Shown here in pieces: positions 15,677 through 39,683 of a stretch of DNA of 39,683 bases. The position numbers and the translations under genes are program-made. Below the pieces are notes generated by a model. That model saw only the letters and a program-made list of their open reading frames with translations, was not told the DNA's origin and ran no database searches. Numbering within the stretch: the first letter of the stretch is position 1; each line of letters starts with the position of its first letter. The DNA comes from Rhodospirillaceae bacterium (GTDB lineage: Bacteria > Pseudomonadota > Alphaproteobacteria > Rhodospirillales > Casp-alpha2), in assembly GCA_038110665.1 (NCBI GenBank), contig JAYNJY010000001.1:1-39683 (forward strand), read 5' to 3'.

Positions 15677-15989
15677 GGCGTCATCTCCGAAGCGGTTGAA
15701 CATGACGAAACCATACCTGCCCAAAAGGCATGTTGTCCACTGCCGATCATTCACGTTTTCGTGAGCGGATTTGCGGCGCAAAGCAGGCTCGAAACAGAGC
15801 CCAGAAACATGCCCGCCAGCACGCCTATATGATAGGTGTCAGAGACCACCGCGGAACCGTTCGCCATGCCGCGCCATGCACGCCCGACACAGACAACCAT
15901 AAGCACGGGCCCAACGTCGCCGCGCAACCGACAGGCGCACCCGAGACAGCCGCGAATCAGCTCAACGAAACTGCCTATAAGGCACCCGA

Positions 15990-16434
15990 CGATTCGCACC
16001 GAAACCGCTCGAAATCAATAATTCCGCATCCGTAACGAAATATTTTTTGCCATACATTTTCTAATGCGAAACCGTGACATTCTTGCAACATTGCAAAGCA
16101 TCAAAACAGCTAACACACTGAAAACAAACCGCGATTAGACCCGAGTCCGGAAGCGCCTACATGAGAAAAATGATTGCATGCATAAGCCATTGAAACCGCA
16201 CAACATTTTATTTCCGACGCGACAATCCATTGTCATCGCATAACATTCCGGTTGTATTTTCCCATTGCAACGCATATGCAACGCATTTTGGGTCAGCCCA
16301 AATCACACAACACAAACAACAACTTACAAACAGCCGATGCGTTGCAGCTTTTGTTAACCATTGCATTATTGCCTATCCCTTAGTCCCTTCGGGACGTCGG
16401 GATAGCCAATAAGGGCCTGCGGCCTGCCCGGCTA
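15990..16434. repeat. AT-rich non-coding hub with iteron-like repeats
   Basis: TGCAACGCAT occurs at 16266..16275 and 16277..16286 (11-bp phase), with an inverted copy ATGCGTTGCA at 16337..16346 and a variant ATTGCAAAGCAT at 16090..16101. CCATTG starts at 16187, 16227, 16262 and 16358. GAAACCG starts at 16001, 16068 and 16192, with CAAACCG at 16125. There is a CA-rich tract at about 16303..16332. No credible ORF. Confidence 0.6.
16373..16405 (+). other. nested stem-loop
   Basis: CTATCCC (16373..16379) pairs with GGGATAG (16399..16405). Inner pair GTCCC-ttc-GGGAC (16383..16395). No U-tract follows. Confidence 0.4.
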
Positions 16435-23457: not shown

Positions 23458-26079
23458 ATGAAGACCAACATCCTCGAACAGCAGCGCATCGCGTCCATGA
23501 CGACGCAGGAGATTTACCAGCAGGCGCTGCTGAACATGCTGCGCGACAAGCTGCAATTCTACCGGCCGTACCCGAAGCAGTTCGAGTTCCACTCGCTGGG
23601 CCTGACGAGCCGCGAGCGCCTGCTGATGGCGGGCAACCAGGAGGGAAAGGCGGGAAGGTTCGATGAGCCCGTTCTGACGCCGACCGGGTGGGTGGAAATA
23701 GGCAAGATCAAGGTGGGGGACGAAGTCATTGCCGGCGACGGCTCGGTGACGCGCGTGACGGGCGTGTTTCCTCAAGGGGTCAAGGATCTCGTCGAGGTCG
23801 AATTCTGCTACGGCACGAAGATTGTCGTCTGCGCGGACCATCTGTGGAAGGTCTTGAAGCCGGCGAATCGGTTCACGACGACGAGCCTTTCCTTGCCACG
23901 GAAGAAGGGCGAGAAGCGGAGAACAAGGCAGATTCCCAACCCGAAGTTCGGAGAGTGGTCGGTCGAGAGCACGGGGGTGATGCGCGCGGCCTACGGCGAC
24001 GCGCCCGCCCCCAAGTACCGCTATGCCGTGCCGGCCGTGGGGGCGGCTGAACTCGCCCCCCAAAGCGTTCCGATAGACCCTTACGTCCTGGGGCTTCTGC
24101 TTGGCGACGGTGGCCTGACGCACAATGTTTCGTTCACGACCGCAGACCAGGACATCGTGGATGCCATGGTGGCCGAGGCGGCTCGGTTTGGGTGCCGGGT
24201 GGCACCACGGCGGCCAATGCAGTACGCCGTTGTTGGCAACAGCGCCTTTCGGGAGGCGCTTCGTGGCCTGAATGTCGCGGGGAAGGGCGCTGCGGCCAAG
24301 CGCGTGCCGGAGGCATACCTGTGGAATGCGCCGGGAATCCGCCTCGCCATCTTGCAGGGGCTGATGGACACCGATGGGACGTGCGAAAAAAGCGGCGTGA
24401 CCAGTTTCACGTCGATTTCCCTCGGGCTGGCTGAAGATGTCGCGTTCCTGGTGCGCTCGTTCGGCGGCAAATGCTACATCCGAAGCCGCATCACGTCGTA
24501 CACGCACAAGGGTGAAAAGAAACAGGGGAGGCGGTCGTACACGGTCATCATCCGCCTGCCGCATGTGCCAATTTTCAGGCTGCGCAGGAAACTCGCGCGC
24601 TACATCCGGCCGACATCGACGTCCGACCATCACATCATCGTCGGATATCGGGACGCGGCGCCGGCCGAGGCGGTCTGCATCAGCGTCGCCCACCCGGACC
24701 GGACCTACGTCATGCGCGACTTCATCGTCACGCACAATTCGTTCTCCGGCGCCATGGAGATGGCCATCCACCTGACGGGCCGCTATCCGCCGTGGTGGCA
24801 GGGCCGGCGCTACCTGCGCCCGATCCTGGCCTGGACCGGCTCCGAATCGAACGAGACGTCGCGCGAACTGATCCAGTCGGCGCTGCTTGGCACGGAGACG
24901 CTCGACCGGATGCACCCCGACTTCGGCACCGGGGCGATCCCAGGCGAGTGCATCGTCGGCGTGACCTCGCGCTATGCCGGCGTCAAGGACGTGGCCGACC
25001 AGATCGTGGTGCGCCACGTCAGCGGCGGCTTCAGCCGCGTCATGCTGAAGGTCTACGAGCAGGGGTGGCAGAAGTTCCAGGGCAAGAAGGTCGACCTGGT
25101 GTGGCTCGACGAGGAGCCGCCGCAGTTCCAGATTTACTCGGAATGCCTGACCCGCACGCAGGCCGCCGAGCACGGGATGCTGTACCTGACCTTCACGCCG
25201 CTGCGCGGCACCACCGACGTCGTCAACCAGTTCCTGGAGAGCGACGGCGAGACGCGGGAGAACAACCAGAGCCGCGCCGTCGTCAACATGACGATCTACG
25301 ACTGCATCGGCGGTGTGTGGCCGGAAGGGACGCCGTTCGCCGGCCAGTCCTGGAAGGGCCACTACACGAAGGAGAAGGCCGAGGCCATCGTCGCGCAGTA
25401 CCCGAAGCACGAGCGCCGCACCCGCGCGCTGGGCGTGCCGATGATGGGCGAGGGCATGGTGTGGCCATTCGACCAGGAGGATTTCGTCGTCCCGGCGTTC
25501 AAGATTCCCAAGCACTTCCCGCAGATCGCCGGCTGCGACTTCGGCATCGACCACCCGTTCGGCTTCTGCACGCTGGCCTGGGATCGCGACAGCGACACCG
25601 TCTACCTGACCGGAAGCTGGCGCATCAACGGCCAGACGCCGGGCGGGCACTGCGACCTGATGCGCCGGATTTGCGACGACTGGATGCCCATCGCGTGGCC
25701 CCACGACGGCGACAACAAGGAGCGCGGCACCGGCGCCAAGCTGATCGCCAGCTACCGCGCGCGGCTGCACAATTTCCTGCCGTACAGCGCCCGCTACGAG
25801 AAGGACAAGGGCGGGCCGCAGCCGGTCGAGCCCATCGTGCTGAACGTCAGCGAGCGCATCCAGCAGGGCACGTTCAAGGTGTTCGAGCACTGCTCGGACT
25901 GGCTGGAGGAACAGCGGATGTTCCACCGCAAGGACGGCCGCATCGTTCCGAAAAAGGATGACGCGATCAAGGCGAGCCTGTATGCCTTGATGGAGTTGCG
26001 GCACGCCCGGACCAAGCCGGAGCCGCAGCCGATACGCCGTTCGAGGCCGATCCTGACGCAGTGGGGAGCGCCCGCCTGA
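23458..26079 (+). CDS. terL: terminase large subunit, intein-containing precursor (873 aa; 510 aa after splicing)
   Basis: Split Walker A GNQEGK/S, WLDEEPP Walker B-like motif, and a C-terminal nuclease-type region. Followed by portal, scaffold and capsid genes. Confidence 0.9.
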   Translation: MKTNILEQQRIASMTTQEIYQQALLNMLRDKLQFYRPYPKQFEFHSLGLTSRERLLMAGNQEGKAGRFDEPVLTPTGWVEIGKIKVGDEVIAGDGSVTRVTGVFPQGVKDLVEVEFCYGTKIVVCADHLWKVLKPANRFTTTSLSLPRKKGEKRRTRQIPNPKFGEWSVESTGVMRAAYGDAPAPKYRYAVPAVGAAELAPQSVPIDPYVLGLLLGDGGLTHNVSFTTADQDIVDAMVAEAARFGCRVAPRRPMQYAVVGNSAFREALRGLNVAGKGAAAKRVPEAYLWNAPGIRLAILQGLMDTDGTCEKSGVTSFTSISLGLAEDVAFLVRSFGGKCYIRSRITSYTHKGEKKQGRRSYTVIIRLPHVPIFRLRRKLARYIRPTSTSDHHIIVGYRDAAPAEAVCISVAHPDRTYVMRDFIVTHNSFSGAMEMAIHLTGRYPPWWQGRRYLRPILAWTGSESNETSRELIQSALLGTETLDRMHPDFGTGAIPGECIVGVTSRYAGVKDVADQIVVRHVSGGFSRVMLKVYEQGWQKFQGKKVDLVWLDEEPPQFQIYSECLTRTQAAEHGMLYLTFTPLRGTTDVVNQFLESDGETRENNQSRAVVNMTIYDCIGGVWPEGTPFAGQSWKGHYTKEKAEAIVAQYPKHERRTRALGVPMMGEGMVWPFDQEDFVVPAFKIPKHFPQIAGCDFGIDHPFGFCTLAWDRDSDTVYLTGSWRINGQTPGGHCDLMRRICDDWMPIAWPHDGDNKERGTGAKLIASYRARLHNFLPYSARYEKDKGGPQPVEPIVLNVSERIQQGTFKVFEHCSDWLEEQRMFHRKDGRIVPKKDDAIKASLYALMELRHARTKPEPQPIRRSRPILTQWGAPA
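23650..24738 (+). mobile_element. 363-aa intein (class 3 signature) with LAGLIDADG homing endonuclease domain
   Basis: Begins with Ala (AGRFDEPVLTPTGW...). Block B is GTKIVVCADHLW. LAGLIDADG motifs are LGLLLGDGGL and LQGLMDTDGT. Blocks F/G are AVCISVAHPDRTYVMRDFIVTHN, followed by Ser+1. Excision restores GNQEGKS. Confidence 0.8.
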
Positions 26080-31627: not shown

Positions 31628-33252
31628 TGGCGCTGCCCGACGACAAGAAGGGCCAACGCATCTCGCTCCGCTTCGGCGCGGGCATCAACACGGCGCAATC
31701 CGAGACCGACATCGACGAACGCGAGTGCGCGGCCGGCAGCCAGAATTTCGGGCTGGCGATCAACGATTCGTTCTTCTCCGGGCGCAAGCCGTTCGACCTC
31801 GTGGCGACGGCGCCGAACGCCGCCGAGGTTCGAGGCTTCGCCCAACTGAAGAAGCAGAACGGCACCGTCTCGACGCTCGTCCAGGCCGGCTCCAACGTCT
31901 ATTCGTGGGACGGCAGCACGGGCTTCACCTTGGTCGGCACGGTGGCGGCCGGCGCCAAGCTGCGCGGCGCGCCGCACCGGCAGAACTGGACGCTCGACGA
32001 GTACGTCATCATCACCGACCTGGAACTGCGCCAGCCGGTCATGACCTGGGACGGCACGACGTTCGCCGAACTCGCCCATGACCTGACGGGCGATTTCTAC
32101 GCCAAATACTGCTTCGTGGAAGGAGAGGCTGCCTGGTTCGCCAACATCATCTCCGGCTCGACGCCGACGGCGACGCCGCACATGTTGGTGCGCAGCGAGG
32201 TCAGCAATCCGTTGAACCTGAGCGTCAGCGACCGGCCGTCGTCATCGCTCGGCGTCAGCGACCCGTTCTTCCTGCTGACGCCGGACCTGCGGCCGATCAA
32301 CGGTATCCTGGCCGCGTTCGGCGTCATCATCGTCTCGTCGCAGGATGGCCGCATCTACAAGATCACCGGCACGACGGCCAAGGACATGGATATCGCCCAG
32401 CTTTACGACGGCTCCGGCGCCGACGGCTCCGAGCCCATCGAACTCGTCGGCAACGACGTGTTCTACGGACGGGCCGGCGCCATCGAAAGCGTGTTCTCCG
32501 TCGACACCTTCGGCGACGTGGCGTCCGATGACATCAGCCGGCCGATCGCCGACATCGTCGAGGAATACGACGACTGGACGCTGGCCTTCAATCCGCGGCT
32601 GAAGAAGGTCTATTGCTTCGCCGCCGGCCGCCAGGAATGCCTCGTCTACCACAAGACCTTCCTGGACGATAAGCGCGACCGGATCGCGTCCAGGCGCGAG
32701 GCGCCGGACAATTCGGCGTGGTCGCGCTGGACGACGCGCCATTCGATGCAGTTCGAGCCATCCGTGGCGATGTTCATGCACCGGCCGACCGATGTCATCG
32801 AACAGGTGTATCTTGGCGGTGCCGCCGGCCAGATTTTCATGCTGGAGGGAACCGGCGGCCAGGACGGCGGCAGCGAGGACATCGAGTCCGTGCGCGTGTC
32901 GCGGGTCTTCCAGGCGCCGGGCGACAACGTCGGCTTCCAGATTTCCGGCTTCCTGTCGTACCGCAAGCAGTTCGCGGTTCCCCTGACGATCACGCTGATG
33001 TACGCCGGCATCCGGCAGGCCGATCAGGAAATCAGCCTGACCATGGAGGAGAACACCAATGCCCAGGTCTTCGGTGGCGACGCTTATTTCGGAGGAGACT
33101 TCTACTTCGGGGTCCTCTTTGAAGGACGCCTCACCCGAGATCAGTTCTCCGTCGCCGGCCTCTCCAGCGAGTTCCAGATCAAAATCGTCGCCGATGGAAA
33201 CCAGGAGTTCTCCATCGAACGGTGCCAGATCGAGTTCCCGACGGGCCGCTGA
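31627..33252 (+). CDS. tail nozzle / tubular B-like candidate (541 aa)
   Basis: Position after the adaptor-like gene. Beta-rich sequence. Confidence 0.45.
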   Translation: MALPDDKKGQRISLRFGAGINTAQSETDIDERECAAGSQNFGLAINDSFFSGRKPFDLVATAPNAAEVRGFAQLKKQNGTVSTLVQAGSNVYSWDGSTGFTLVGTVAAGAKLRGAPHRQNWTLDEYVIITDLELRQPVMTWDGTTFAELAHDLTGDFYAKYCFVEGEAAWFANIISGSTPTATPHMLVRSEVSNPLNLSVSDRPSSSLGVSDPFFLLTPDLRPINGILAAFGVIIVSSQDGRIYKITGTTAKDMDIAQLYDGSGADGSEPIELVGNDVFYGRAGAIESVFSVDTFGDVASDDISRPIADIVEEYDDWTLAFNPRLKKVYCFAAGRQECLVYHKTFLDDKRDRIASRREAPDNSAWSRWTTRHSMQFEPSVAMFMHRPTDVIEQVYLGGAAGQIFMLEGTGGQDGGSEDIESVRVSRVFQAPGDNVGFQISGFLSYRKQFAVPLTITLMYAGIRQADQEISLTMEENTNAQVFGGDAYFGGDFYFGVLFEGRLTRDQFSVAGLSSEFQIKIVADGNQEFSIERCQIEFPTGR

Positions 33253-33292
33253 CCTCGACCGGGCGCTGCGGCGCTCGCCGAGCGTTCAGGTC

Positions 33293-33781
33293 GTGAACGA
33301 AGACGACCTCTCCTGGCTCTACGCCGCGTACAAGAAGGGTTGCTTCGGCCCGCTGTTCGCGCCCGACATGCAGGGGGCGGAGTTCAAGGAAGACTGCGCC
33401 AAGTTCCTGATGAAGTGGCCGCACCGCTGGCTGGTGCGGGCACGCTACAAGGGCACACGGGAACTGCACCCGGTCGGCCTGATGGTGGCGACGTCGGATA
33501 TGCACCGGCTGTTCCCTCATGCCATCTGGTTCCCCTGGGCGACGCGGCGCAACATCCTGGAGGGCCTGCTGGGATTCCTGCGCGACGCCACCGAGGCCGG
33601 CTGGCTTGTGGTCATAGCCAGTGGGGATAAATTCCGCGATTTCTTTACGAAACTGATGCGCTATGGCATCGTCAAGCGCGTCGGCGTCATTCCGGGCTGG
33701 TTCGCGGACACGGAAGCCGCTGTCCACGCCATCGAAGGGTCGGGCACGGACGCGATGTTCTTTTACGCCCGGAAGAAGTAG
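33293..33781 (+). CDS. hypothetical protein (162 aa, GTG start)
   Basis: The part of the 240-aa track ORF upstream of 33252 overlaps the previous gene. GTG 33293 is the first usable start. Confidence 0.5.
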   Translation: MNEDDLSWLYAAYKKGCFGPLFAPDMQGAEFKEDCAKFLMKWPHRWLVRARYKGTRELHPVGLMVATSDMHRLFPHAIWFPWATRRNILEGLLGFLRDATEAGWLVVIASGDKFRDFFTKLMRYGIVKRVGVIPGWFADTEAAVHAIEGSGTDAMFFYARKK

Positions 33782-34513: not shown

Positions 34514-35833
34514 ATGGCACAGTACGGCGCCGCTGGCGGGTTCTCGGCTGGGCTGCAAGGCGGCCTCGACGCCGGCGCGCGCCTGAATGCCAATTCGCTG
34601 GCCGCGCGAGACGCCAAGGTCAAAAGCGCGCTGACGATGCGCGGGATGCAGATCGACGAAGCCAGGATACAGCAGGACGCCAAGAGCAAGGAGCAGGCGA
34701 AGTACAAGACCATGCTCGACGAGGTCTACACGGCTTGGCAGTCGGCTGTCGTGGCCGGCGGCCCACAGCGCGAACAGGCGCTTGCCAACGTCCAGAAGTA
34801 CATCTCCCCGCTGGATGTAGGCGGATCGAAGCCCGGCCCCAGCCCATTGCAGACGGCGGCGATCCTGGCTGGCCTGCCGCCCGCCGAGTTGGAGATGAAG
34901 TTCCGTAGCCTATTCAATGCGCCGACGGTGGCCGACGTGGAGGGCAGAAAGTCCGAGGCCACGACCGGGGGCAGGATTGATGCTGAATTGGCTAAGGCGC
35001 CGGATACCCGGGCCGCCGCCGCTGCGGAGGCCGAAGACGTTGCCGCCGCGACGGTCACTGGCCGCGTCGGGGCGGAGACTGCCAACCGTGGCGCCATCGC
35101 AGCCAATGCCGGCGCCGTCACTGCGGCCCAAGAAGGGGCGAAGACGCCAACCATCGTCGAGTTGCAGAACGCGCGGGACAAGGCCCTCGCCTTGGGGACT
35201 CCAGAGGGGGTGCGGCGCGCCTCCGAGATCGAGGGGGAGATCGCCGCACGAGCCGACCCTACCGGCGCCATCCGCACGGCCGGCATCGTCCCGGCGAAAG
35301 AGGTTCGCGTGGCGGCCGAGAACCTGCGCATCGGCATCCGCAACCTGAACGAGGTCATGAACCTCCAGGGCATGATCGAGAAGTCTCCGATGTCGGTGGG
35401 CTTTGTCGGCGGCGCCATCGAGAAAATCGACGGTATCGTCGGGCAATTGGAGACGGTGACGGGCCTTGATCTCCCCGCCATCGGCACGGACGAATTTAAC
35501 CAAGCGCGCACGCAGGCCCGCAGTGTCGTGACGCAGATGATTACGGGCATGGAAAGCGCGAAGCGGCTAACCGAGGGCGATATCCGGCGCGCAAATGAGC
35601 AGGTGAAGGTACTCGAATCTGCGTCCTCGATCCGGCAGGTGAAGAACGCCCTCCAGACCATCTCCGAAATCATGGACCGCGCCAACTTGGCGCAGGCCGA
35701 CCAGTACCTTGCCAACGTCGAACTCCTGACCGACAAGGGCGCCGAGGAGGCGTTCAGCACCCTTCGCAAGAACGGGATGTCGAAGGAGATGGCGACTGAC
35801 TACGTTGCCCGGCTGCAACTCCAGAGGCAGTGA
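34514..35833 (+). CDS. internal virion protein candidate (439 aa)
   Basis: ATG 34514 lies 9 nt after GGAAAGG. Helical, A/E/R-rich. Confidence 0.5.
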   Translation: MAQYGAAGGFSAGLQGGLDAGARLNANSLAARDAKVKSALTMRGMQIDEARIQQDAKSKEQAKYKTMLDEVYTAWQSAVVAGGPQREQALANVQKYISPLDVGGSKPGPSPLQTAAILAGLPPAELEMKFRSLFNAPTVADVEGRKSEATTGGRIDAELAKAPDTRAAAAAEAEDVAAATVTGRVGAETANRGAIAANAGAVTAAQEGAKTPTIVELQNARDKALALGTPEGVRRASEIEGEIAARADPTGAIRTAGIVPAKEVRVAAENLRIGIRNLNEVMNLQGMIEKSPMSVGFVGGAIEKIDGIVGQLETVTGLDLPAIGTDEFNQARTQARSVVTQMITGMESAKRLTEGDIRRANEQVKVLESASSIRQVKNALQTISEIMDRANLAQADQYLANVELLTDKGAEEAFSTLRKNGMSKEMATDYVARLQLQRQ

Positions 35834-38800
35834 TGGCTGAAGCCGACACCCTGGACGCCGCGGCCCCTGCCGAACCCTCCATCGCGGAGCAGATCAGGGC
35901 GCGCCGCGAGGTCATCGAAGCATCGGGCGGTGTCGCTGGCATCCGCGCCCGCCAGGAGGTCAGGGAGGTCACGCGAGAGGGGCAGATTGCCGAGTCGGTC
36001 GGTCAGGCGACGCTTGGCCCACCGGGGCTCCAGGACACCGGAGCGCGAGCCGACATCGGCCTCTCGAACAGCTTCATCGAGAAGAAGATGAAGTTCCACA
36101 GCTACTACCCGGAAGGCAACTTCATCGAAAAGCCGGACCCGATGGCGCCGTCGAATCCCATCATCCTTTTCCGGCCCAACCAGGAAACGCCGTTCGCCAA
36201 ATTCGACGCCGAGGCCATGGAAACCTTCGAGCCGTTCGGCGACCTCGCCGATATAGCGGGCGAGGTTCCGGCCGTCGTTCTGGAGGCGCTTGTCGGCAAG
36301 GGGAGAAGCGTCCTCGGCAGCATGCTCAGGAACTTCTGGGCGTCCACGACCGGCGATGCCATGCGCGAGGCCGTCGAGGACGCCCGCGGCTTCCAGAAAG
36401 ACGAGATCGACCAGATCATCGTGCGCGGAGTCGGGCAGGGCGCTTTTGCCGCTGCTGGCGTGGGGACGACGGTGGCTGTAAGCGGCCCCCTGAACTGGCT
36501 GCGTGGCGCCCCGGCCATCGGCGTCAAGGAGGGTGCCCAGCGCGCGCAGACCATGGCCGCCAATCTCGGCGTCCCCCGACTCCATCCGGGTCAGGTATCA
36601 GACTGGCCGTTGCTCCAGAAACTCACCGGGCAGGCCCGCGAGACGATGCCGGATCTCCAGCGGTACGAGCGCGATCAGCGGTCGGCGACATCGCGCGCCC
36701 TGCTCGGGCTGCGCGACGAGGACGTGAGCCGCGCGCTCGGCGACGACCTGTCGAAGTTGCACGACGACGCGCGCAAGCAGGTTGTCGAGGCGGCGATCAA
36801 GAATCCCCGCCATCTCAGCGAGGGCGGCTCCGCCATCCAGAATGGCATCAAGGAATACGAAGACCTCTCCCGCATGGCGGTGAACAAGAAATACGCCGAC
36901 GCCAGGGCGATTGAGACGCCGGACTTCGATCCGTCTTCGGCGCTGGCCGTGGCCAGGAACATCGAGGAGGAGGCCGCCGCCCTCGGCCGCGATCTCCCCA
37001 AGGACGTGACGGACGCCATCGCAAGCCTGCGGAACTTCGACCCGGCCGCCGAGCCGACGACGTTGAGTTCCGGCGTTGTCATCGACGCCACGGCCAAACT
37101 CCGCGCCATCCGAACCGACCTGTGGGACATGAAGACGCTTCCGGTCGGCGGCACGGCCACGCCGGAGCAGCGCCAGAGCGCGCGCCTCGCCGGGCAGCTT
37201 TACACGGCGATCGGTCGCGTCCTGGATGACCCGAAGAACACGACGCCGGAGTTCAGGAAGGCGTGGTCCGAGGCGGCCCAGGAAGCGTCCGCGCGCTTCA
37301 CCACCATGGAGAAACTGATCGTCGTCAAGGCGGCCAGGGACGAAACTCCGGCGCAACTCGCGCTGAGGCTCGCCAAGCCAAATCAGGTGGACAACCTGAG
37401 GACGCTGCGCGAGATCATGCCGGATGACAAATGGAAGGCGTTCACTGACGCGGCCATTTCCGACATGGTCGATTCCAGGAACATCAACAGCCTGGCCGGC
37501 CACCTTCGCTCCTTCGACAAGGAGACGCTGAACACGCTGCTGTCGCCGACGGAGCAGATCACGCTGAAGCAGGTTGCGGAGCGGATCGACCGGCTGAACG
37601 ACCTCGGGCTTCCCGACATGCTGGGGCGCCAAGCCCGGCGCGGCGACATCGCCTATGACCTTCTCGTCAAGGGCGACAGGGGGAAAACAAAGACGTTCAC
37701 GGAGATGATAGGCGCCAACCCGGCGGTGCGGAAGGAAGTCCGCGCCGGCCTGATCGACAGCCTGATCGCCAGGAACGTCGATACCGTCGAGGGCCTTCGC
37801 GTCATCAAATGGGAGCAGTACAACCGCGACCTGGACAAAATGCTCGACAACGGCGCCCTGAAGTTCCTTACCCCTAACGACGTGCGCGTCCTGCGCGACC
37901 TGAAGGTGGTGGGGCAATTTCTACCGGACGCCAGCGATGCCGGCACGTCCATAGCGGCGGCGAGCACGGCAAGCGGGATATTCAGGGGGCGCCCGACCGC
38001 CCTTCTGACGGCCGGCCGGCTGTGGGGCCTGGGCAGATTGCTGACGACGGAGTCCGGCCAACGGGCGTTGCTCGGTAGCGACAGGAAAGTTTTCCGCGGT
38101 GCGCAGTACCCTGCGCTGCGCGTCGCTGGCGCGATTGCCGCCGAACTGCTGAGTGATTTTAGCGGCGGGGAAGAGACTCCCGGCGCCCGTGAGGAACCAC
38201 AGGCCCCTGCCGAGATCGGCCAGCGGGACGCGTCCTCTGCTCAACAAGAATTGCGCGACATCGTCGGCGGCTCCGGCAGCGGACTGCGGGGCGGCGCCAA
38301 GGAGGACATTCTTTCGCTTGGTGCGGTAAAGGACAATGTCCCGGCCAATGCCAGGGCGTATGTTCTCGCCTTATCTGGCGGAAAGGGGCCGATTACAGAG
38401 AGTTTCTTTTCCGGGAGGGAAATCGACGGGCTAAAACAAATTGTCTCTGAGGCATTAAAGAAAGGGAAAAAATCAATTTCATATGAAGATTATACTATTC
38501 CAGGTGGGTGGGGGGCCTCAGTAAGTGCTGACGATGATACGGTGTCTGGCATTGTAGACAAAAGTTACAATAGTTTAACTTTCAATCTTATGACCACGCT
38601 TGGCGGGGCATCAATTTCAACATCTAAGTCCGGTGATGTTATCGTTAAGGACGTATATGACTTCAACTCCGCCGGCACTCCTCCGAGAAAAACAGAATTA
38701 AATTACAAAAACAATAATTGGTGGAAGGAAGGGATACCTGTCCGGGATATTTTTGACGCCTTTATCTCTGGGGAGAAAAGCGCCTATGAATCGCTGCGAT

Positions 38801-38928
38801 CACTAGGTGCGACTATCGGTCCGCTGGCGGGGCGGGATGATAAGGGCATCCCCGTGGAAATAAATTTGGGCAACCCAAAAGATTGGGCGACTAAAGACAC
38901 TGTCGTCGCATCAGAAAGCGGTAGGTAG
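35833..38928 (+). CDS. large internal/ejection-type virion protein (1031 aa) with a foreign low-GC C-terminal module
   Basis: TGATG coupling. The largest ORF, in the position of podovirus ejection proteins. A composition break occurs at about 38300. Confidence 0.6.
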   Translation: MAEADTLDAAAPAEPSIAEQIRARREVIEASGGVAGIRARQEVREVTREGQIAESVGQATLGPPGLQDTGARADIGLSNSFIEKKMKFHSYYPEGNFIEKPDPMAPSNPIILFRPNQETPFAKFDAEAMETFEPFGDLADIAGEVPAVVLEALVGKGRSVLGSMLRNFWASTTGDAMREAVEDARGFQKDEIDQIIVRGVGQGAFAAAGVGTTVAVSGPLNWLRGAPAIGVKEGAQRAQTMAANLGVPRLHPGQVSDWPLLQKLTGQARETMPDLQRYERDQRSATSRALLGLRDEDVSRALGDDLSKLHDDARKQVVEAAIKNPRHLSEGGSAIQNGIKEYEDLSRMAVNKKYADARAIETPDFDPSSALAVARNIEEEAAALGRDLPKDVTDAIASLRNFDPAAEPTTLSSGVVIDATAKLRAIRTDLWDMKTLPVGGTATPEQRQSARLAGQLYTAIGRVLDDPKNTTPEFRKAWSEAAQEASARFTTMEKLIVVKAARDETPAQLALRLAKPNQVDNLRTLREIMPDDKWKAFTDAAISDMVDSRNINSLAGHLRSFDKETLNTLLSPTEQITLKQVAERIDRLNDLGLPDMLGRQARRGDIAYDLLVKGDRGKTKTFTEMIGANPAVRKEVRAGLIDSLIARNVDTVEGLRVIKWEQYNRDLDKMLDNGALKFLTPNDVRVLRDLKVVGQFLPDASDAGTSIAAASTASGIFRGRPTALLTAGRLWGLGRLLTTESGQRALLGSDRKVFRGAQYPALRVAGAIAAELLSDFSGGEETPGAREEPQAPAEIGQRDASSAQQELRDIVGGSGSGLRGGAKEDILSLGAVKDNVPANARAYVLALSGGKGPITESFFSGREIDGLKQIVSEALKKGKKSISYEDYTIPGGWGASVSADDDTVSGIVDKSYNSLTFNLMTTLGGASISTSKSGDVIVKDVYDFNSAGTPPRKTELNYKNNNWWKEGIPVRDIFDAFISGEKSAYESLRSLGATIGPLAGRDDKGIPVEINLGNPKDWATKDTVVASESGR

Positions 38929-38930
38929 CC

Positions 38931-39683
38931 ATGACCGGCCCCAGCACGTCCCCGTACACGCCGCCGTCCGAAGGCAGCTACAACGCCAGCCCGCCGCCCG
39001 ACGACGGCAGCCAGACGGAAGCCAACCGCATCAAGTGGTCGACGATCAAGACCAAGCTCGCGGACATCATCCGCACGTTCGCGCTGGCCGTCGATACCGC
39101 CGTCACCACCATGGCGGCGAAGACGGTCAACACCGACGACGGCGTGGCCAACGAGATCGGCGGCAACATCGGCTTCGAGGCCGACGAACTGACCATCGCC
39201 ACCGGCGCCATCGTGCCGAACCGCAGTCACCATACTGTCGACACCGAATCGGACGCGGCGAGCGACGACCTCGACACGATCACCAACACCAGCATGGCGG
39301 CCAGCGCGATCCTGATCCTGCGCGCCTCCCATACCGACCGCACGGTGGTCATCAAGCACGGCACCGGCAACATCTACCTGGTCGGCAACATCGACTTCAG
39401 CCTGGACGACACCGACAAGGTCATTGTCCTGCACCGGCGCGGCACCGACTGGTTCGAGCTTGCCCGCGCGGCGTCGAACACGCTTGACGTTCAGGTCTTC
39501 ACGGCGTCGGGCACCTGGACCAAGCCGGCCAGCGGCACGTTCGCCATGGTCGAAGTATGGGGTGCTGGTGCCTCCGGCGGCCAGGGGTCGAACGGCAACG
39601 CCTTCGGCGGCGGTGGCGGCGGCGCCTATAACATGGCGACGTTCCGTTTGACGGACCTGGGCGCCACCGAGACAGTCACTATC
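38931..39683 (+). CDS. N-terminal 251 codons of the glycine-rich tail/fibre-type protein (open at the window end, continues at 1..189)
   Basis: ATG 38931 lies 2 nt after the previous stop. VQVFTASGTWTKPASGTFAMVEVWGAGASGG...GGGGGGAYNMATFRL...TETVTI is the typical start of phage glycine-rich fibre domains. No stop before 39683. Confidence 0.7.
   Translation, partial: MTGPSTSPYTPPSEGSYNASPPPDDGSQTEANRIKWSTIKTKLADIIRTFALAVDTAVTTMAAKTVNTDDGVANEIGGNIGFEADELTIATGAIVPNRSHHTVDTESDAASDDLDTITNTSMAASAILILRASHTDRTVVIKHGTGNIYLVGNIDFSLDDTDKVIVLHRRGTDWFELARAASNTLDVQVFTASGTWTKPASGTFAMVEVWGAGASGGQGSNGNAFGGGGGGAYNMATFRLTDLGATETVTI

Follow-up and report, generated by a model that had tools for sequence, protein, structure and literature searches.

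Why does the largest structural gene of an otherwise GC-rich stretch of phage DNA end in some 200 codons of far lower G+C content (GC)? The stretch, referred to here as the window, comprises positions 1 to 39,683 of contig JAYNJY010000001.1 (assembly GCA_038110665.1, catalogued as a Rhodospirillaceae bacterium) and has an overall GC of 0.646. The carrier open reading frame (ORF) runs from 35830 to 38928 on the forward strand and encodes 1,032 amino acids from a GTG, or 1,031 from the ATG one codon later that gene callers choose; it stops at TAG 38926–38928, and the next ATG is at 38931. A first-pass annotation of the sequence had read the C-terminal part of this protein as a foreign module, recently grafted onto an ejection-type protein that is likely injected, and perhaps a cell-wall, membrane or anti-defence effector delivered at infection. 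We show that 38203–38928 is an in-frame C-terminal cassette that is present here, absent in one sister phage and replaced in another. Our high-confidence conclusion is that recent recombination with a phage of far lower GC brought in the domain that the cassette carries, and that the segment has yet to ameliorate. The complete explanation that we favour, a recent low-GC cassette on an ejection-type protein, delivered in the virion and acting at peptidoglycan, is an evenly balanced proposition.

The compositional break is sharp. In 200-nucleotide (nt) windows, GC is 0.64–0.70 up to 38399, 0.41–0.485 over 38300–38899 and 0.62–0.66 from 38800 on, with recovery reached by 38900–39000. The break is sharpest over 38401–38800 on the forward strand, the compositional core of the island (GC 0.425; GC at third codon positions, GC3, about 0.42, falling to 0.275 in the lowest 40-codon window), which is flanked by shoulders at 38301–38400 (GC 0.56) and 38801–38928 (GC 0.547). 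Across 38461–38760, G+C amounts to 125 of 300 (0.417), z = −7 against the other 300-nt windows; these served as the reference for the rest of the 39.7 kb and, outside two islands, have a mean of 0.651, a standard deviation of 0.033 and a minimum of 0.53. The fall is mostly at synonymous sites. Residues 858–990 have GC of 0.43, 0.43 and 0.42 at first, second and third codon positions (GC1, GC2 and GC3), compared with 0.67, 0.47 and 0.83 for residues 1–850, and GC3 in six neighbouring genes is 0.83–0.90. The GC3 of the module, 0.415, has a z of −9.7 relative to 12 neighbouring genes read in 367 sliding 130-codon windows (mean 0.875, standard deviation 0.047, minimum 0.738). Codons that the genome leaves nearly unused are frequent in it: TTA occurs 4 times against 0 in the reference genes, TCA 7 times against 4, and AAA supplies 10 of the 16 Lys codons against 26 of 185. 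The first-pass annotation had described a sharp drop near 38300, a GGSGSGLRGG linker ahead of it, a hand count of 125 in 300 and a return to normal at the next gene (38931). The drop, the linker and the return are all present as described, and the count is exact. Sliding-window GC and codon usage both show a clear break, so the objection that no significant break exists fails.

A feature of the locus is how cleanly the cassette can be delimited by comparison. Searches with the whole protein returned, besides itself, only two relatives. One (P0002, 798 amino acids, phage L002) is 47% identical over the conserved core, residues 1–791 (35830–38202, forward strand, GC3 0.83), and ends in PGAREEPQP without the module. 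The other (P0003, 1,070 amino acids, encoded at L003 2721–5933 and L004 10001–13213) is 46% identical over the core and continues into an unrelated 280-residue extension (residues about 790–1070). The C-terminal cassette site is therefore read from these two alleles, one without a cassette and one with a different extension. At the left junction, 24 nt (38179–38202, forward strand; CCCGGCGCCCGTGAGGAACCACAG) are identical to L002, which then reads CCATGA straight into the next gene. What follows in the window, 38203–38928, is 726 nt on the forward strand, in frame and with its own TAG stop, and has no counterpart in L002; the right junction, CCATGACCGGCCCC, is again common to both. The cassette opens with a linker (38203–38300, forward strand; APAEIGQRDASSAQQELRDIVGGSGSGLRGGAKE) with a GC of 0.714, native-like though it lies inside the cassette.

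Beyond the stop, the 5′ end of a tail-fibre gene is 95% identical in nucleotides between the window and L002 (38931–39304 against L002 12394–12763), compared with 63–68% for the core gene. On this side, then, the cassette site adjoins well-conserved sequence that lends itself to homologous exchange, and recombination would have inserted the domain between the end of the conserved core and the highly conserved start of the fibre gene. The step in identity between the two genes is itself a mosaic boundary: either the N-terminus of the fibre has been exchanged recently, or an adaptor-binding segment there is strongly conserved. As for the alternative extension of P0003, its GC3 is near native (0.58–0.76); it has an HExxH motif (HESVH), its linker holds an RTX-like GGAGDDTLG nonapeptide, and it had no match in Pfam, PHROGs or NCBIfam. 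In P0003, the same site may thus hold a passenger of the metallopeptidase type.

The module belongs to a large family of uncharacterised phage domains. The domain is about 180 residues long, and the envelope of a hidden Markov model (HMM) of the family covers 38308–38907 on the forward strand (residues about 827–1026), with the motifs VPxNxR, SGGxxPITE, SYEDY, TTLGxA, VxDxYDFN and GxPVxINLG. In module numbering, in which residue 1 is the first of the 208-residue C-terminal query (window 38302–38925), family alignments give G26, Y61, G101, D117 and G182 as invariant; because all of these and every conserved motif are kept in the copy of the window, this copy is an intact domain. No His or Cys is conserved, and D117, in VxDxYxFN, is the only invariant acidic or polar residue. 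A phmmer search of 1.84 billion representative sequences yielded 211 clusters at E ≤ 1e-3, spanning query residues of about 5–200; the closest match other than the module itself is 34–44% identical, and none exceeds 44%. Among the 112 full-length copies in the top 149 of these clusters, 78 carry the module at the C-terminus, 29 are stand-alone proteins of at most 230 residues and 40 are proteins of at least 500 residues (up to 2,066). The only match in PHROGs is to family 7348 (E 3e-9, C-terminal positions 2391–2504 of a 2,564-position profile), a stretch that other family members also match; the family corresponds to roughly the last 170 positions of this profile. Its label, 'endolysin', probably derives from the LysM parts of the profile and is probably misleading. 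An internal translation start of the module was considered and rejected: the AAGGAGG at 38299–38305 forms Lys-Glu-Asp codons, and there is no in-frame start at a workable distance.

Other searches with the module returned little. Pfam, NCBIfam and PDB-sequence searches with both the module and the whole protein were empty (those of PDB with the single sequence and with a profile), a word-indexed protein search with the module alone found nothing, so that the exhaustive search of representatives was needed, and the region had no match by megablast or blastn among 50.7k phage records. Among the 50.7k deposited phage genomes, the only carriers are SIO1-like phages and Pelagibacter phage HTVC115P. 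AlphaFold2 with a 71-sequence alignment, which replaced a single-sequence run with a predicted local distance difference test score (pLDDT) of 32, gave a confident alpha+beta model (pLDDT 82, predicted template modelling score 0.79). Foldseek found no match to this model in the PDB (best E 2.5, template modelling (TM) score at most 0.17), and in BFVD it matched only uncharacterised phage proteins (E 1.6e-7 to 1.2e-3, TM score 0.41–0.56), among them a Lentibacter phage ICBM3 protein and Roseobacter phage SIO1 gp23. The follow-up that the first-pass annotation proposed for the module alone, structure prediction with Foldseek and a separate search of the segment, has thus given a confident fold with phage relatives only, stand-alone genes, and copies in low-GC phages. 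Its statement that it could not place the module in a family holds in the sense that the family is unnamed and is not in Pfam, and fails in that the family is large and corresponds to the C-terminal part of PHROG 7348.

Whether the low GC marks a transfer or is a property of the domain can be judged from the other carriers. In 11 loci of 31–48% GC, module GC lies within 0–6 points of the flanks and module GC3 matches the rest of the gene. Three copies come from GC-rich backgrounds. In the window (64.6% GC), module GC3 is 0.42–0.47 and that of the rest of the gene 0.83; in P0016, from a 62%-GC genome, the values are 0.54 and 0.80; and in P0021, on a 64%-GC contig, the module has a GC of 0.637 and a GC3 of 0.85, with 0.745 in the rest of the gene. 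Since P0021 encodes the domain at such a GC3, the low GC is not forced by the protein. The window copy is best read as a recent import, that of P0016 as an older acquisition and that of P0021 as fully ameliorated or native, and P0016 suggests that high-GC phages acquire the module repeatedly. Because the module has a GC of 0.43–0.47 and module GC tracks genome GC elsewhere, the donor genome would have had roughly 45–50% GC.

Two other accounts of the composition have to be set against a recent transfer. The low GC could be intrinsic to the domain, through selection on amino acids or on nucleotides (slow translation, 3′ mRNA structure). The family is indeed AT-leaning everywhere (share of the residues FYMINK 0.307 ± 0.049 and of GARP 0.254 ± 0.045; 0.288 and 0.267 in the module of the window), and much of the fall in GC1 and GC2 is explained by these amino acids, which are AT-leaning in every carrier; the depressed GC3 of P0016, in an unrelated phage, points the same way. 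However, GC3 in the window is free of protein constraint and falls all the same (z = −9.7), P0021 reaches a GC3 of 0.851, module GC3 matches the rest of the gene in the 11 lower-GC loci, the sister phage simply lacks the cassette, and a promoter and terminator scan gave no signal above chance on the coding strand. An intrinsic origin is improbable. Alternatively, a low-GC fragment might have been joined to a high-GC phage contig during metagenome assembly; the sequence does come from assembled environmental reads, and none of the collections searched holds a closely related copy of the module. Yet two sequencing runs yielded three contigs with the identical 1,031-residue fusion gene, and the cassette keeps the reading frame, opens with a linker of native GC and has its stop codon 2 nt ahead of the conserved beginning of the following gene. 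The chance of such an artefact is negligible, and chimeric assembly is ruled out for practical purposes. The first-pass claim that the module is foreign and recently acquired therefore stands, carried by the drop at synonymous sites, the sister without the cassette, the tracking of GC in the 11 loci and P0021. The observation that it had named as refuting, unrelated high-GC phages with the same low-GC module, is seen in weak form in P0016 and not in P0021.

The route by which the domain might reach a host depends on the nature of its carrier. The core (35830–38202) is the largest protein of the structural module and a putative internal virion or ejection protein at the position of T7 gp16, the D-type internal virion protein (IVP-D). 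The gene order is portal, a scaffold-sized ORF, capsid, a 237-residue protein, an SU10-adaptor-like protein (223 residues), proteins of 541, about 162 (or 240), 235, 442 and 1,032 residues, and a Gly-rich tail fibre, an order that relatives L002 and L004 keep. The carrier is thus the last and largest of the run of internal-protein genes, after the tail-tube and adaptor genes and before the fibre. This mirrors the layout of T7, in which tail-tube genes are followed by gp13–gp16 and gp17. The core had no match in Pfam, PHROG, NCBIfam or PDB-sequence searches. We assign it with moderate confidence to the gp16/IVP-D type on the basis of position and size; the first-pass reading as an ejection-type protein agrees with the T7-like gene order and the size, and has no sequence or profile match behind it.

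Relatives of the module keep characteristic company. Pfam hits among 64 multidomain members comprise LysM (14), PG_binding_1 (12), SLT (7), crAss_CARG1, the crAss cargo protein 1 (3), Phage_lysozyme2, a tail lysozyme (2), ART-PolyVal (2), the DUF6782 metallopeptidase (2) and LPD23 (1); the module itself falls under no Pfam family. LysM or PG_binding_1 adjoins the module in at least 26 of them, and in the proteins inspected singly the peptidoglycan-binding domain lies directly upstream; P0043 and P0157 consist of LysM-LysM-module with no other domain. The idea that crAss_CARG1 is the module was rejected, the crAss cargo domain being a separate unit downstream of it. All genomic contexts examined are podovirus structural regions. 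P0157, from a T7-like marine phage (L007), is encoded after a 1,827-residue giant protein and before a Peptidase_M15_3 gene; in L005 and L006 the module lies inside an SU10-like structural module, with P0028 between capsid and SU10-adaptor genes; in HTVC115P it lies inside the 1,893-residue gp40 (residues about 1408–1595); SIO1 gp23 adjoins the IVP genes gp25 and gp26; and P0016 (L016 3992–7723; 1,243 residues) bears SLT and has the module at its C-terminus, with nothing else in common with the protein of the window. The match of SIO1 gp23 (L020 25069–25671) to the family profile is confined to the first two-thirds, the protein ending right after the NFN motif; this may be a natural short form, or the ORF as deposited may be truncated.

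We hypothesize that the domain travels in the capsid within the gp16-position protein, exits together with the ejection proteins when the phage infects, and acts at the peptidoglycan layer by binding, local remodelling or cutting, which would help a trans-envelope channel through the wall. Packaging, release at infection and action at the peptidoglycan layer are each proposed with moderate confidence. The wall-directed reading rests on the partners, which are peptidoglycan-binding or muralytic (LysM or PG_binding_1 upstream, SLT or tail lysozyme in the same chain), on the existence of stand-alone copies, on the lack of an N-terminal signal peptide in the stand-alone members read directly, and on the endolysin-type gene, an M15 peptidase, next to one member. 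Lack of a signal peptide fits virion delivery or passage through holin lesions rather than secretion. Among the first-pass options for an effector delivered at infection, domain co-occurrence favours the cell-wall one alone; the module resembles no known catalytic family or fold. On motif evidence, the invariant Asp (VxDxYxFN) near conserved aromatic residues (YxDY) is compatible, speculatively, with a sugar-binding or glycosidase-type site. A more specific version, that the module is a structurally unprecedented peptidoglycan-active domain, either a muralytic enzyme, in which the invariant Asp would work together with the aromatic-acid cluster YxDY/DxYxFN, or a glycan-binding domain of new fold, carried in podovirus particles and traded across GC backgrounds, is tentative and somewhat doubtful.

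Two other functions can be envisaged. Were the module an effector of host takeover or anti-defence that enters the cytoplasm with the DNA, in the manner of polyvalent proteins, this would account for the members that share a chain with ART-PolyVal, LPD23 or HExxH metallopeptidase domains and for the HESVH motif in the alternative extension of the sister phage, and homologues of IVP-D do carry cytoplasm-destined domains, such as the virion RNA polymerase (vRNAP) of N4 (PMC4819975). Yet domain hits to peptidoglycan-binding or muralytic partners number at least 36 and those to cytoplasmic effectors about 5, the former directly adjoin the module, and the LysM-LysM-module proteins have no other domain, all of which makes a cytoplasmic target unlikely. 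The module could also be a structural or assembly element, docking to the capsid core or portal or contacting the tail fibre or adaptor, and be inactive towards the host: in 78 of 112 copies it lies at the C-terminus, the N-terminal parts to which it is joined differ widely, it is always encoded in structural modules, and it has no conserved His or Cys and a single invariant acidic residue. The sister protein without it nevertheless keeps the same neighbouring genes, so the core does not need the module for incorporation. Stand-alone copies (29 of 112, at most 230 residues) would be docking tags without cargo, which makes little sense; their existence argues that the module acts as an effector by itself. 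The close association with LysM or PG_binding_1 would also be left unexplained. We regard a purely structural role as distinctly unlikely.

Several observations weigh against a recently acquired, virion-delivered, wall-acting domain as we propose it. PDB-sequence, profile and Foldseek searches matched the domain to no known hydrolase or binding fold, and, among known peptidoglycan hydrolases, comparison with the lysozyme-like/SLT, amidase_2/3, CHAP/NlpC-P60, M15 and M23 families gave no Pfam, PDB-sequence or fold match. The protein of the window has no LysM, PG_binding_1 or SLT of its own in a Pfam scan, and the ART-PolyVal and metallopeptidase partners of some members are the company of cytoplasm-directed effectors. 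Pfam, PHROG, NCBIfam and PDB searches, in which the HMM–HMM methods of Hardies et al. were not reproduced, detected no homology between the core and T7 gp16 or another IVP family. As to the transfer, nothing closer than about 44% identity was found as a donor in the 1.84 billion representatives or IMG/VR, where a single-protein scan returned only relatives at 26–32% identity; because no donor was found, 'recent' rests on composition and on the indel polymorphism. The GC-depressed copy of P0016, at the same protein position in an unrelated 62%-GC phage, hints at nucleotide-level constraint. Finally, the high GC of the first 98 nt of the cassette speaks against a simple one-step insertion of 726 nt, and because of it the recent breakpoint probably lies at about 38300–38400, in a pre-existing or already ameliorated linker, rather than at 38203.

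Other features of the window touch less directly on the cassette. The gene that follows it, tail-fibre-like with a Gly_rich_2 domain, starts at 38931, and its first part fills the rest of the window (38931–39683, forward strand), with the first 374 nt offering homology for exchange of the cassette. Elsewhere in the 39.7 kb, GC falls this low in a single further island, at 15900–16300 (minimum 0.42), which is non-coding and has no notable ORF; in and beside it the motif TGCAA(C/A)GCAT occurs three times in direct orientation (16092, 16266 and 16277) and once inverted (16337). This island looks like an intergenic regulatory or origin region, and tRNA and Rfam scans of the window, the island included, gave no match. 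At 23458–26079, the longest ORF for the large terminase has 873 codons, against the 510–514 residues called in relatives, and its N-terminal part also matches primase and helicase-loader P-loop PHROGs; the true start may differ, or the N-terminus may be a fusion. A small gene at 33059–33781 (probable start about 33293, giving 162 residues, as called in L018) occupies the position of T7 gp13 and of the cobavirus GNAT-type IVP-A, and had no Pfam or PHROG match. The closest capsid among deposited phages, 39% identical, is that of an uncultured freshwater-spring virus. Host inference through the capsid protein in genomes led only to a 5-kb contig binned to a Nitrospiraceae metagenome-assembled genome, too weak a lead to be used.

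That podoviral internal proteins carry variable passengers, and that phages have polyvalent proteins, is already established, and the phenomenon itself is not new (PMC4819975; PMC5512222). What the window adds is a large unnamed passenger family with a confident predicted fold that has no PDB relative, and an unusually clean snapshot of absent, present and alternative alleles at one site, after a transfer that spanned about 15–20 GC points. The three alleles (no passenger, the module and the HExxH-bearing extension), with nearly identical flanks, form a natural experiment in which the contribution of the passenger is testable. Through its pairing with LysM, PG_binding_1, SLT and tail-lysozyme domains, the family is a candidate for a new cell-wall-directed virion activity, of practical interest for enzybiotics. 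Gene flow between phages of about 45–50% and about 65% GC also constrains ideas on co-infection and host overlap in the sampled environment. If the peptidoglycan-active reading is true, the window has caught one inter-phage trade almost in the act.

The nearest points of comparison among cultured phages are SIO1 gp23 (family-HMM E 2e-24) and HTVC115P gp40 (BLASTP 33% identity, E 7e-11), the only deposited cultured-phage proteins with the module. Both lie in or beside giant internal-protein genes and are annotated only as gp23 and hypothetical protein; their genomes are low in GC (0.46 and 0.31), and neither is close enough to be the donor. A second comparison is with modular phage cell-wall hydrolases, the endolysins and virion-associated lysins, in which LysM or PG_binding_1 is combined with a catalytic domain. 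In family members the module takes the usual place of the catalytic domain beside LysM or PG_binding_1, PHROG 7348 is labelled as an endolysin and one member adjoins an M15 peptidase gene. Unlike these hydrolases, the module has no similarity to lysozyme, SLT, amidase, CHAP/NlpC-P60 or M15/M23 folds, and the copy of the window has no adjacent peptidoglycan-binding domain.

Polyvalent proteins (Iyer et al. 2017, PMC5512222) are likewise effector domains hitched to a delivered protein, and several long members of the family carry ART-PolyVal, LPD23 or metallopeptidase domains. By contrast, the protein of the window has one recognisable added domain and no Pfam PolyVal or LPD, the LPD families of that paper having been compared through Pfam only. 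Two or more effector or LPD domains per chain, which define a polyvalent protein, are found in some other carriers of the module (ART-PolyVal, LPD23 and DUF6782) and not here; LysM is not mentioned in the text of the paper (PMC5512222).

The internal virion proteins of podoviruses provide the remaining comparison. They variably host lysozyme and cytoplasm-destined passenger domains (Hardies et al. 2016, PMC4819975), examples being the N-terminal SLT of T7 gp16, the lysozyme domains of phiKMV-type IVPs and the vRNAP of N4 gp50 in an IVP-D homologue (PMC4819975). Here, the core has no detectable IVP-D homology, and the passenger is C-terminal and comes from an unnamed family without a fold match. 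In its likeness to these systems, the window has a large protein at the gp16 position with an optional extra domain that varies between close relatives, P0016 joins SLT and the module on one such protein, and the gene layout is the same as that described for cobaviruses and phiRIO-1 (PMC4819975; PMC6775973).

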